Shown here piece after piece: positions 29,239 to 33,344 of a stretch of DNA of 64,000 bases. Both the position numbers and the translations under genes were made by a program. Location of the stretch: IMG/VR virus record IMGVR_UViG_3300030514_000001, positions 64,001-128,000 of that record; one strand, written 5' to 3'. This DNA comes from a virus (taxonomy: Duplodnaviria > Heunggongvirae > Uroviricota > Caudoviricetes > Herelleviridae). Numbering within the stretch: the first letter of the stretch is position 1; each line of letters opens with the position of its first letter. A model generated the notes under the pieces. It did not search any database, had not been told where the DNA came from, and worked only from the letters and a program-made list of their open reading frames with translations.

Positions 29239-29846
29239 TTACCTTCCTCCCCATTCAATTGTTTACCCATCGCAAGCAGCATATCCCTGAATACTGGTAA
29301 ATCTCCTCGATTGTCGTACCCCATAGAGTATGTGAAAATACGGGACTTTCCTAGATTGTGTGCTTGATATTGTCTGTATGCTTTTGCTTTGTCTAGGATA
29401 AAGAAGAACGCTACATCTTCCCATTCTTTTGTTTCGAAAGCAATATGTATATTATTAATTCCATGAGCTTTAATGTACGCTTCTTCATCATGGATATAAA
29501 CTTCTTCACCATATACATCTGTGATTAAACTGTACTCTACTTCTTCGTATGGTTTGATTTCGATAGGGCAATCTTCTCCATTACCATCGTAGTAATCCTC
29601 TACTAGTTCCTCTGGCTTCTCATACCACACTTCGTAGTCATCGTCCCATGTGTATCGCATATCTTCACCATCGTAGTAGTCTAATAGCTCGTCCACATAT
29701 GGAATGAATCCTTTTCGTTCTCTTTGTACGACATGGATAGCGTCACATGTGTAACGGTTATCTTCTGCGCCATCATAATGCTTGCTATTAAACTCTTTTA
29801 ACAACTCGACCTGCTTGTCCGTAAGTTCGAAAGTAATTTTAGTCAT
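29235..29846 (-). CDS. acidic hypothetical protein
   Basis: start MTKIT after GAGGAGGG SD. Confidence 0.8.
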   Translation of the reverse strand: MTKITFELTDKQVELLKEFNSKHYDGAEDNRYTCDAIHVVQRERKGFIPYVDELLDYYDGEDMRYTWDDDYEVWYEKPEELVEDYYDGNGEDCPIEIKPYEEVEYSLITDVYGEEVYIHDEEAYIKAHGINNIHIAFETKEWEDVAFFFILDKAKAYRQYQAHNLGKSRIFTYSMGYDNRGDLPVFRDMLLAMGKQLNGEEGK

Positions 29847-30150
29847 TCCAGATTCCCTCCTCATCATCTAACCATTCGGTTGCGGAATCATCGATTATAA
29901 CACCGCGTAGCGCTGCTTGCTCTACAAATTCTCTCCAAGAACAGCAACCACTCCATTCATCTCCGTAATTAATACCTACTAACTCTTTACCATCCACTTC
30001 AATACTCATCCATCCGCCTCTGTATCTACAATAGAAGTACTCGCCATATTTCGTCTTACCTTCGTACTGTGTAGGACAAGCAAAGCATGTCTGCGATACT
30101 TTATCTAACTTTACGAATCTTTTAAATTGAGTAAAATTTTTTGTAACCAT
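29839..30150 (-). CDS. hypothetical protein
   Basis: TCFACPTQYEG...YCRYRGG motif. Confidence 0.75.
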   Translation of the reverse strand: MVTKNFTQFKRFVKLDKVSQTCFACPTQYEGKTKYGEYFYCRYRGGWMSIEVDGKELVGINYGDEWSGCCSWREFVEQAALRGVIIDDSATEWLDDEEGIWND

Positions 30151-30416
30151 TATAACTCTCCCTCCCTATTTAAAATCTTCTCTACAGCGTTGTCAATCGC
30201 TTCTAGTAAATCTTCTACACTTTTAGCTTCACTTTCTCGTAAGTCCTTATGTAATAATGCAACTAAAGCTTTCGAAACGTTAGCGTAGTACCCAACTACT
30301 TTATAATCGTGACCTACAACCTCATTTTTCTTGTTCTTCTTCTCATACTTCTCATTGATGATAACGTTCATCGGGTCTGACGTAAGCTTGTACTTTTCTC
30401 CTACATAAATTTTCAT
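30150..30416 (-). CDS. hypothetical protein
   Basis: follows TTTACT-type promoter and AGGAGG SD. Confidence 0.8.
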   Translation of the reverse strand: MKIYVGEKYKLTSDPMNVIINEKYEKKNKKNEVVGHDYKVVGYYANVSKALVALLHKDLRESEAKSVEDLLEAIDNAVEKILNREGEL

Positions 30417-30485
30417 TTGTTATCTCCTCCTTGATTTAATATTACTACATTATTTACTAAAAGTAAACAACTTTCTTTAAAAATT

Positions 30486-30986
30486 TTAATCTACTTTTTT
30501 ATACACTCTAAAGCGGAATTTAGCGCCCATCTCTTCTATACCAGCTTTCGTTGCTGTTCGCTTATAGAAACGCTTATAAATATTTTTGTCGAACTCCGGG
30601 AAAAAGGAATCCGCATCATACTCTTTATCGATTTCCGTTATGTATAATCTATTAGCCATCGGCATAAACTGTTTGTAAATAGAATCTCCACCGATTACCA
30701 TTAGCTCTTTCTCGTCCTTGAAGTCGTTTAATACTTCGTGGATATTATGATATATGCGTACATCTTCGTGTAGTGGCTTGAAATCTTTGTTTCTAGTAAG
30801 CACAATGTTAACCCTACCCGGTAGGAACTTACCAATGGACAAATGCGTCTTACTACCCATAATCACAGGCTTACCCATCGTCTTTTCTTTAAACCAGTCA
30901 AAATCTTCTTTGCTGTGCCATAGCATCTGATTGTCTTTGCCAATCGCTCTATTAGACCCCATAGCCGCAATCATACTAATTATCAT
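30486..30986 (-). CDS. dfrA: dihydrofolate reductase
   Basis: ISMIAA..NRAIG, W...EDF..FK..T, VIMG, LPGRVNIVLT, IGG, DSFFP. Confidence 0.95.
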   Translation of the reverse strand: MIISMIAAMGSNRAIGKDNQMLWHSKEDFDWFKEKTMGKPVIMGSKTHLSIGKFLPGRVNIVLTRNKDFKPLHEDVRIYHNIHEVLNDFKDEKELMVIGGDSIYKQFMPMANRLYITEIDKEYDADSFFPEFDKNIYKRFYKRTATKAGIEEMGAKFRFRVYKKVD

Positions 30987-31782
30987 TCAACCATTCCCCT
31001 TTATCTCTAATTATTTTCCATTCTTCTCTTTTATTTATAGCGTCTTCCATCGTTCCAAAGAACTCTTCTCTACTTACCCCTTTGTACTGCATTCTTGCTC
31101 TCCACATATTGGTGTGTTTAGCGAAGTCTACTCCTGTATGACCTGACTTATTTTTAGGTAATTCTCTATTCACAACTTGGTCACTAGGGCTTGCATATCT
31201 TAAATTAGCCTCTCTATTATCTAATCCATTTCTATTTATATGGTCTACTGTGTGTCCTGTCGGTGGTTCACCATATAGGTGTTTGGCTATATACTGGTGC
31301 ATGTTAACCTGAACTCCATTATATTTCCCTCTAGCGTAGAATCTTTTTCCACCCTTAACCCTGTGCCACTTTATATGTTTCACTAGCTCGATTAGTTCAT
31401 CGTCAACAAGCGTAACGCCTACCAGAACTCCTTTTATGTCGTATAGCTCGATTTCTACATAACCATCTTTATGTGTTATTTTATTTTCTACTGGTCTAGC
31501 ATCTGTAGAACCTTTGCTTATCATTCTTTCATAGTGTTTCTTGCACAAGTCCATTTTTTCTCCAAATTTACTCGTTGTCATAATTACGCTATCTTTACTA
31601 TGTACACCACATACATCGCACGTTCTATCTTTCTTCATATCGTTTACGCTCTGTGTTCTCCCTTTGTTCTTTACTAGTTGGTAATGCTTCGAGCAGTACA
31701 CATGCTCATTTCCACTAACTTCTAGAGTGTACATCCACTTAAAATCATCAGATGTTCTTTCACACACTTCGCAAACCTTCAA
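30976..31782 (-). mobile_element. freestanding HNH homing endonuclease (two N-terminal Zn fingers, HNH, AP2-like C-terminus)
   Basis: CEVC..CSKH, CDVC..CKKH, VDHINRNGLDNREANLR, NKSGHTGV...WRA. Confidence 0.9.
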
Positions 31783-31832
31783 TATATTAACCTCCTATTT
31801 TTACCATGTGCAGCGATTAGCGATATAATCAA
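31779..31832 (-). pseudogene. orphan 5' fragment of dfr (MIISLIAAHGKNR+RLIY*)
   Basis: TTG start after GAAAGGAG SD; 10/13 aa identical to DHFR N-terminus; TGA overlaps HNH TTG. Confidence 0.8.
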
Positions 31833-31859
31833 TCTTTCATCTCTCCTTTCAATAATTTT

Positions 31860-31888
31860 ATAATACTAGCATATTTTCGAAAAGTCAA
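31860..31888 (-). promoter_or_regulatory. sigmaA-type promoter of the dfr locus
   Basis: TTGACT-17-TATTAT. Confidence 0.75.
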
Positions 31889-31906
31889 TAAAAAAAGACT
31901 ACTTTT

Positions 31907-32278
31907 TTAGTAGTCTCCAGAAATAATAAATCCTTCGAATCGATTCGTGTATACTGAGCTTTCTGCAATGAACTCCGAGAAGATGCGAAGCGCTGCATGG
32001 TACGTTTCTTCTTCCATTTCCTCATCAATTACTACAGCAAATGTAACGTCCTCGTCATCGGTATATACGTAATAGTTTAGACAATCCGCTTCTAGTTCTC
32101 CATTCTCATACGCGTGTTCCCATTCATTGAACTGTTCTACATTGATGTAGTTCTTTCCTCTAGCCCAGAACATAAAACTAGCTGCATTTACATACGAGTC
32201 AAATCGGTCAAAGAAACTTTCTCCCACTTCATGTTCGAAATCGATAATTGCGTCAAATACCTCTTGTGCAGTCATCAC
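31907..32278 (-). CDS. acidic hypothetical protein
   Basis: coupled ORF. Confidence 0.75.
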   Translation of the reverse strand: MMTAQEVFDAIIDFEHEVGESFFDRFDSYVNAASFMFWARGKNYINVEQFNEWEHAYENGELEADCLNYYVYTDDEDVTFAVVIDEEMEEETYHAALRIFSEFIAESSVYTNRFEGFIISGDY

Positions 32279-32484
32279 TCCGCCTCCTTGAAATATACAA
32301 TGTCATCGTACTTAATGTATGTATCATCAATTACAATAAAGTCCCCAAATCTCCATGTACCGTTAGCATCTGTTGAACCGATTACATTCGCCATAACCAG
32401 CGCCTCATGAAAACTATCCATTGTTGTTTGTTGTACTGTAACAGTTAGACAAGCGTTATTTCGTAAATATAGGTCTACTTTCAT
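32275..32484 (-). CDS. hypothetical protein
   Basis: ORF with SD. Confidence 0.7.
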   Translation of the reverse strand: MKVDLYLRNNACLTVTVQQTTMDSFHEALVMANVIGSTDANGTWRFGDFIVIDDTYIKYDDIVYFKEAE

Positions 32485-32486
32485 TA

Positions 32487-32753
32487 TTAATCCTCCAAAA
32501 TAATAAAGTCTGTGTTTTCTGTGTGGTCTAAATCGATTAACCCTTCGTTGAACAGGAAGCTAATAAAATCTTTATCTACATCTCCGAACTCATATAACTT
32601 TACATGTATACCGTCTTCGCCGTATTCATCCACTTTGTCGATTTTAGTAACACCTTTATTTATCATCTCATTATACACTGATTTTGGGTTGTAGTTCTCC
32701 ATAAAGTATCTTGCTGCTCCGTCTCCATCACCATAAACTAATAATAATTTCAT
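32487..32753 (-). CDS. hypothetical protein
   Basis: ORF with SD. Confidence 0.75.
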   Translation of the reverse strand: MKLLLVYGDGDGAARYFMENYNPKSVYNEMINKGVTKIDKVDEYGEDGIHVKLYEFGDVDKDFISFLFNEGLIDLDHTENTDFIILED

Positions 32754-33344
32754 TTAATTTTCCCCCTTGTATGTTTTTGCGTATATGTCTAGCATAACTG
32801 CATCTATTTTTCTATGTAAATCTTCGATTGTGCCGTCATTCACAATATCGTAATGTACTTCTTCATTCATAAGAGTAACTTCCGTTTCATGTAATAAGTC
32901 CTCTTCCTTGAAGTCATCACCAGCTTCTAATGAACGTTTAATTTGAAGCTCCTTAGGCGCTGATACACGAATGATAATGTATCCTTCCTCTCTTAGCCTT
33001 TGGAACTCGTTAGGCTGTCGTACTCCAGTGATAAGCGGTATAAACAACTTTTCATGTCTGTTAACAATACTCGTCCACTTCGCTCTGTGCTGTGAGTACT
33101 TAACCAATTTGAAGCACTTGTCAATCCACAGGTCTTCTCCATATACGTATCTCATAAGTTGTCCGTACATCTGATACCCTTTTCTCGGTTTAGGTTCTCG
33201 TGGTACATGTGGGTAAGTATGGTGGAAATCATCTTTCAATGAATCAGAGAAGTCGAAGGGTGAACAGTCGAACTTGTCCACCAAATAATTCTCCGCTTCC
33301 GTTTTCCCGACACGTAACCCTCCAGCTAGTGCCAGTTTAATCAT
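32754..33344 (-). CDS. deoxynucleoside monophosphate kinase
   Basis: N-terminal P-loop GGLRVGKT, FSDSLK, R..YQ.YG..MR, ITGVRQPNE, HETE, IVNDGT. Confidence 0.85.
   Translation of the reverse strand: MIKLALAGGLRVGKTEAENYLVDKFDCSPFDFSDSLKDDFHHTYPHVPREPKPRKGYQMYGQLMRYVYGEDLWIDKCFKLVKYSQHRAKWTSIVNRHEKLFIPLITGVRQPNEFQRLREEGYIIIRVSAPKELQIKRSLEAGDDFKEEDLLHETEVTLMNEEVHYDIVNDGTIEDLHRKIDAVMLDIYAKTYKGEN

Follow-up and report, generated by a model that had tools for sequence, protein, structure and literature searches.

A free-standing HNH endonuclease gene within the start of dfr in a Bequatrovirus-like Bacillus phage, and a replacement dfr 5' end most likely of foreign origin

The window, a stretch of 64,000 nucleotides, belongs to the genome of a Bequatrovirus-like Bacillus phage. 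On its minus strand, an HNH endonuclease gene lies between a short stub ORF and an intact DHFR gene (dfr), and the entire arrangement is read from that strand (Table 1). The DHFR peptide begins with MIISMIAAMGSNR and matches Pfam DHFR_1 (E 1e-52) over profile positions 2-158 of 159; its gene overlaps the end of the HNH ORF, which is read in a different frame, by 11 nt. The stub encodes the peptide MIISLIAAHGKNRRLIY, and its TGA stop codon overlaps the TTG start codon of the HNH gene (31782) as TTGA. This order of promoter, SD and 17-codon mini-ORF overlapping the HNH start had been proposed in an earlier note on this DNA and its coordinates were confirmed, with the promoter and SD also occurring in Bequatrovirus B4.

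Table 1. Features of the dfr/HNH locus, by position in the window (B4 is an HNH-less Bequatrovirus; X3 is a run of independent DNA)
Feature	Position	Strand	Basis or remark
Terminator-like hairpin ending the upstream gene	31894..31918	-	Native; same sequence in B4, common to HNH-less relatives
dfr promoter-like site, TTGACT-17-TATTAT	31860..31888	-	Native; identical in B4, with close variants in further Bequatrovirus-like loci
Native dfr SD, AAGGAG	31843..31848	-	Kept in HNH-less relatives
17-codon stub ORF, TTG (31832) to TGA	31779..31832	-	Codons 1-13 native (31832-31794), plus 4 codons from the insert
AATAG, upstream junction copy (stub codons 12-13)	31795..31799	-	X3 joint; five letters fit either side
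846-nt insert: rest of HNH SD, HNH gene, dfr SD, replacement codons 1-13	30949..31794	-	X3 contig; equal offset against B4
SD-like AGGAGG, 8 nt 5' of the HNH TTG, spanning the upstream junction	31791..31796	-	Sequence
HNH endonuclease gene, free-standing, intact, 268 aa	30976..31782	-	Pfam HNH_3; I-HmuI profile match; alignments; tree
SD-like AAAGGGG for dfr, inside HNH codons K-G-E, 9 nt before the new ATG	30996..31002	-	Sequence
Replacement dfr 5' end, codons 1-13 plus differences at nt 41 and 48	30939..30986	-	Comparison with B4
AATAG, downstream copy (replacement codons 12-13)	30949..30953	-	Sequence
Hybrid dfr, full length, 166 aa	30486..30986	-	DHFR_1; comparison with B4

The stub and the start of DHFR are identical at 10 of 13 amino acids. 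When start and upstream-start peptides were paired across the genome (11,538 pairs), the dfr pair ranked second with a score of 46, the next score being 26; ranks one and three were taken by a repeated family of starts reading MTRH. Three minus-strand starts of the window (23054, 24918 and 26570), lying within 3.5 kb, have N-termini similar to one another (MTRHTRNRQMKKL, MTRHTRNRQMDKL and MTRHVRYKQLNKA), probably representing a small paralog family. A 21-nt intergenic piece following dfr (30451-30471) recurs elsewhere on the same contigs and is probably a repeated promoter/SD motif. A scan for promoter-type sites returned 14 against 12.6 expected by chance and does not by itself rise above chance, but the same promoter-like sequence precedes dfr in B4.

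The HNH start lies just 11-12 nt from the upstream junction, the HNH gene overlaps the start of dfr, and the interval is coding from end to end, as the earlier note had stated. An Rfam search of positions 29500-33000 identified no intron family (a single match, E 0.2, fell far under its cut-off). A group I intron carrying an HNH ORF, of the I-HmuI type, was rejected on this tight spacing and on the lack of an Rfam match for an intron core around the ORF. Among RNA sequencing runs, none contains more than 0.12 of the query words.

Comparison of fourteen related dfr loci (L001-L008, L025-L030) shows a single start with no HNH gene ahead of it in all fourteen, and both N-termini together in none. 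HNH-less relatives (B4, Troll and others) carry the same promoter and SD, start with LIISLIAAHGKNR and continue directly into DHFR, which is the form that the earlier note had predicted for such alleles. In B4 the sequence following promoter and SD is TTG ATT ATA TCG CTA ATA GCT GCA CAT GGT AAG AAT AGA GAG ATT GGT. B4, AvesoBmore, Troll and loci L026 and L028 each share 36 of 39 nt with the stub, and replacement codons 1-13 are identical to B4 at 21 of 39 nt (18 of 39 differ). A contig from run X3, which is independent DNA, joins position 30948 to 31795 and skips 846 nt, with five ambiguous letters corresponding to AATAG; runs X1 and X2 read through the filled site without a break, and each may be the window's own source. 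The empty alleles, the identity of the stub to B4 and the X3 joint establish that the stub is the native start of dfr and that the insert comprises 846 nt placed after codon 13, with both junctions resolved to the base. The intron-less element inserted after about codon 13 that had been proposed is therefore present, and it now stands behind the native promoter-like site and SD shared with HNH-less relatives. The proposal that two Arg codons of the old fragment form the HNH SD holds in part: the first (codon 13) is native, whereas the second AGG came with the insert, since the empty alleles continue GAG ATT after codon 13.

DHFR of at least 90% identity occurs in 29 GenBank records, and the four that were opened (B4, AvesoBmore, Troll and vB_BcgM) are all Bequatrovirus. 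No HNH of at least 60% identity was found among 433 matching phage records. The record of B4 (L001:1501-2001) places the dfr start internally (71 aa), but a TTG at 1501 opens the frame for the full 166 aa; AvesoBmore and Troll, unlike B4, annotate the full 166-aa gene.

The 268-aa HNH ORF matches Pfam HNH_3 (E 8e-9), and its core residues D180, H181, N189 and N193 align with those of the nicking enzyme I-HmuI (profile match to PDB 1U3E, E 2e-7). It differs from I-HmuI in not being intron-encoded, in a long N-terminal region with two CxxC...CxxH repeats, and in Gln202, which stands at the position of I-HmuI Asn96. We take this Asn96 to be a metal ligand. Gln occupies the position throughout the HNH clade described below (21 of 21 rows, 20 from the tree alignment and the metagenome contig L194 separately). 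The AlphaFold model of the protein is weak (pTM 0.41); Foldseek with this model returned nothing at E 0.001 or better, I-HmuI ranking seventh at E 0.1, and phmmer of the single protein against PDB gave no match. A second, distantly related HNH-like ORF lies outside the window in the same genome (G000:C1:21552-22127; E 1e-6 to the A3 profile).

The best GenBank matches of the HNH are encoded by the siphoviruses PBC2 (Andregratiavirinae by its record) and Thrax3, at about 37-40% identity, and the closest proteins are P0002 (52%) and P0003 (42%). When viral, genome and metagenome contigs were scanned with profiles, three of the scans covering the best 80 of 205, 128 and 130 matches, one close relative emerged, L194. 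In a quick maximum-likelihood tree of 46 proteins (P0100-P0210 left out), the window HNH falls with PBC2, Thrax3 and L194 in one group of 21 rows (SH-aLRT 100). DNA context is available for 4 of the 21 rows, and in all four the HNH gene lies directly 5' of dfr. The gene order in PBC2, Thrax3 and L194 is td-HNH-dfr, the end of the HNH gene overlapping the dfr start, and these three lack a stub. In all four, the codons of a C-terminal K-G-E spell an SD-like sequence shortly before the dfr ATG, AAAGGAG in PBC2, Thrax3 and L194 and AAAGGGG in the window. When the tails of the HNH proteins were back-translated in a shifted frame, P0003 and P0063 showed DHFR-like readings, with 65 and 25 of 200 shuffles scoring as high; across all tails tested, hidden dfr overlaps were not significant (between 25 and 164 of 200 shuffles).

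The empty allele of Thrax3 and PBC2 is represented by Thrax1, its dfr following td directly, and the HNH genes of Thrax3 and PBC2 start behind the same GGAGGAA at which dfr of Thrax1 starts. The divergence of dfr from Thrax1 is densest at the 5' end in both phages: in 30-nt blocks, identity is 21, 22 and 26 in the first three blocks of PBC2 and 24 in the first of Thrax3, with later blocks at 26-30. Presence and absence of an HNH gene at the dfr start is thus found in two unrelated phage groups (the window against B4; Thrax3 and PBC2 against Thrax1). Distant HNH relatives outside the 21-row group, in phages Perkons and BcoS-136 (L033:1995-2678 and L277:7774-8310), lie immediately before a gene for DNA polymerase III alpha, adjoining its start, and are perhaps a parallel start-adjacent element.

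The stub and the remaining dfr are 92-98% identical to B4, whereas the replacement is nearly saturated at synonymous sites. Where the amino acid is the same, 7 of 9 codons within codons 2-13 of the replacement differ synonymously from B4, against 6 of 139 within codons 17-166 (Fisher p 2e-7); in the stub, 3 of 12 such codons differ. One of the serine codons is AGT in the replacement and TCG natively. Past codon 13, two further differences from B4 occur at nt 41 and 48, and 8 of 453 nt differ over nt 49-501, so the foreign tract probably reaches about codon 16. The sharing of 10 of 13 amino acids with differing codons was as the earlier note had it, and the gene is indeed rebuilt with a differently spelled start, but the suggestion that this start was recoded in place is better replaced by foreign origin, given the near-saturation at synonymous sites. 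A copy made at insertion could hardly diverge so far while the functionless stub stayed nearly unchanged, which argues that the replacement came with the element. The saturated sites, including the TCG/AGT serine, and the habitual position of the HNH clade beside dfr indicate that it most likely arrived ready-made from a foreign dfr, alongside the HNH gene.

Over its codons 1-8 the replacement agrees with Bastillevirus-type dfr in 21-22 of 24 nt (with B4 in 13 of 24), a likeness that was picked after comparing about a dozen lineages and ends at codon 8, codons 9-14 matching at only 6 of 18 nt. The codon-usage probability of the five Bastillevirus-matching codons is 0.0014, before correction for the dozen or so lineages and for the limits that overlap with the HNH stop places on these codons; this likeness is a hint and does not identify a donor. 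Neither the exact 23-nt start nor a degenerate pattern had any match in IMG/VR. Among GenBank phages, blastn and tblastn of the 5' end retrieved Bequatroviruses, C30-1 and weak generic dfr matches. A search of GTDB genomes with the peptide pattern found MIISMIAAMGSNR in 31 loci (L278-L308), all marine Bacteroidota by title and taken as a generic DHFR start. The peptide at one of these (L288) continues as a DHFR-like start, and the replacement is therefore a canonical DHFR N-terminus.

Taken from these comparisons, the HNH is probably a free-standing homing endonuclease that entered from another phage together with the 5' end of that phage's dfr, by one-sided homing. During co-infection of a Bequatrovirus and a donor phage carrying HNH-dfr, the enzyme would have nicked the resident dfr near its 5' end. 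Repair would have used the donor dfr as the sole homology, with a crossover after about codon 16 and copying of the donor start, HNH gene and SD. On the upstream side, which lacked homology, the copy would have been rejoined at the 5-nt match AATAG in codons 12-13, leaving native codons 1-13 stranded. It has been described that HNH homing enzymes nick a single strand, and that one-sided homing of the T4 td intron proceeds with microhomology junctions (PMC2988022). Stub, HNH and dfr would now all be transcribed from the native dfr promoter, with the HNH translated from its own SD or by coupling through the TTGA overlap of the stub. DHFR would be translated from the SD inside the HNH gene, so that no splicing would be needed. 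Since the stub keeps everything from the promoter to codon 13 nearly unchanged, a target that continues 3' of codon 13 is predicted, unless the three differences in the stub protect it; the insert would split this target and the foreign spelling would keep the rebuilt dfr immune. It is plausible that the replacement start removes the target site in this way. As both flanks are now homologous, the cassette would be able to home normally into HNH-less Bequatroviruses. A broader possibility, put forward tentatively, is that the HNH clade with Gln at the Asn96 position may be a specialist of dfr starts across unrelated Bacillus phage families, a self-contained start-replacing cassette with a portable SD and an immune N-terminus, of which the window would represent the jump into Bequatrovirus.

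Other routes to the same arrangement were weighed. The HNH-dfr segment may have been transferred passively, by ordinary illegitimate recombination during co-infection, the HNH being an idle passenger or aimed elsewhere and the new start conferring no immunity. An anatomy of one-sided homology with a 5-nt match requires no nuclease, the position of I-HmuI Asn96 is held by Gln, and the element is not spread in the sampled genus, the whole stretch being found in two runs only, both possibly the source of the window. Nevertheless, the ORF is intact and the Gln is clade-wide, which points to constraint rather than decay, and presence and absence at the dfr start in two unrelated groups is accompanied in each by divergence concentrated at the dfr 5' end; passive transfer is accordingly considered unlikely. 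More improbable still is insertion of the HNH gene alone, with duplication of the native start behind it and rewriting of that copy by selection to escape cleavage. The 10 of 13 amino acids shared with the stub and the fruitless donor searches would fit such a course, as would the requirement that the first codons of the replacement be compatible with the HNH stop overlap. Such rewriting would, however, have had to introduce 18 changes into 39 nt over a period in which the non-functional stub gained 3 and the remainder of dfr 8 in 453. Getting from TCG to AGT takes three changes by way of codons that do not encode Ser. Within codons 1-14 there are also four amino-acid differences from B4, and relatives of the HNH already precede foreign dfr genes.

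The stub might also still be in use, either rejoined to dfr by splicing or ribosome bypass between the AATAG copies or serving as a regulatory leader. Deletion of the insert between the repeats does leave an open frame, as is true of any duplication, and the overlap of the stub stop with the HNH start is an arrangement discussed as translational coupling for T4 HEGs (PMC2988022). Against this stand the interval that is coding throughout with no Rfam intron match, the SD and ATG owned by dfr, which make joining unnecessary, and RNA folding at both junctions, where nothing unusual was found (z 0.97 and -1.67). Three relatives manage without a stub, and coupling may occur but as a by-product; continued use of the stub is thus very hard to credit. 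One-sided homing from a foreign HNH-dfr phage accordingly remains the preferred reading.

The window element resembles the free-standing HEGs of T4-like phages (Seg, Mob; intronless homing) in that the HNH gene lies outside an intron and is variably present among close relatives, and in its position beside a nucleotide-metabolism gene and its overlap with neighbours (PMC2988022). It has three features of intronless homing, namely a homing-family nuclease domain with its catalytic motif (with the caveat of Gln202), a location outside any intron or intein, and absence from the site in close relatives. The T4 elements are either intergenic or divide a gene so that it yields two polypeptides, as with mobE in nrdA of Aeh1 and mobA in gene 60 of T4 (PMC2988022), whereas the window dfr is interrupted close to its 5' end and restored as a single polypeptide by a second start. 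A gene in pieces like Aeh1 nrdA or T4 gene 60 was rejected, as the downstream ORF is a complete 166-aa DHFR. The sections of PMC2988022 consulted describe neither a stub-plus-replacement case nor a dfr target among T4 HEGs.

In fungal mitochondria, mobile endonuclease ORFs are described to make gene hybrids in atp6 of Allomyces macrogynus and in atp6, atp9, cox2 and nad3 of Glomus (PMC3630166, citing Paquin 1994). In that account, as probably in the window, the endonuclease brings a foreign end of its target gene; in both, the displaced native end stays relative-like and the replacing end shows mainly synonymous differences. Here a duplicated gene end flanks the endonuclease ORF and the displaced copy is the native one (36 of 39 against 21 of 39 nt). 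The systems described there differ in that the window has the 5' and not the 3' end replaced, so the element must supply an SD and start codon, and in that it is an HNH in a phage and not a LAGLIDADG or GIY-YIG enzyme in a mitochondrion. The window element works like the fungal gene-hybrid elements but falls outside their group. In ICP1-like Vibrio phages, HEG-islands are reported to move with essential-gene cargo and to leave essential-gene fragments (Barth et al., PMC10055350). These islands comprise multiple genes bracketed by two HEGs, whereas the window has one HEG, 13-16 replaced codons and a base-resolved junction; their essential-gene fragments are the nearest phage precedent met. In the literature searched, chiefly the main text of openly accessible articles, no phage start-replacing HEG or dfr-adjacent HNH is described, and PMC7685451, PMC12724721 and PMC6221350 contributed nothing specific; figures S2 and 4B-C of PMC10055350 might show a similar case.

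How free-standing HEGs enter new phage lineages without upstream homology is usually hidden by loss of the junction, but at this locus both junctions are preserved. DHFR of at least 90% identity occurs without any close copy of the HNH in about twenty named cultured phages, making target, immunity and homing directly testable. The locus also cautions that the first codons of a phage gene can differ in ancestry from the remainder. It suggests that dfr is a likely homing target common to myo- and siphoviruses of Bacillus, and it would carry the gene-hybrid design of fungi over to the starts of phage genes. If the HNH clade should prove to be a dfr-start specialist cassette, it would join introns and inteins as a third means of homing into conserved coding sequence while leaving the gene alive.
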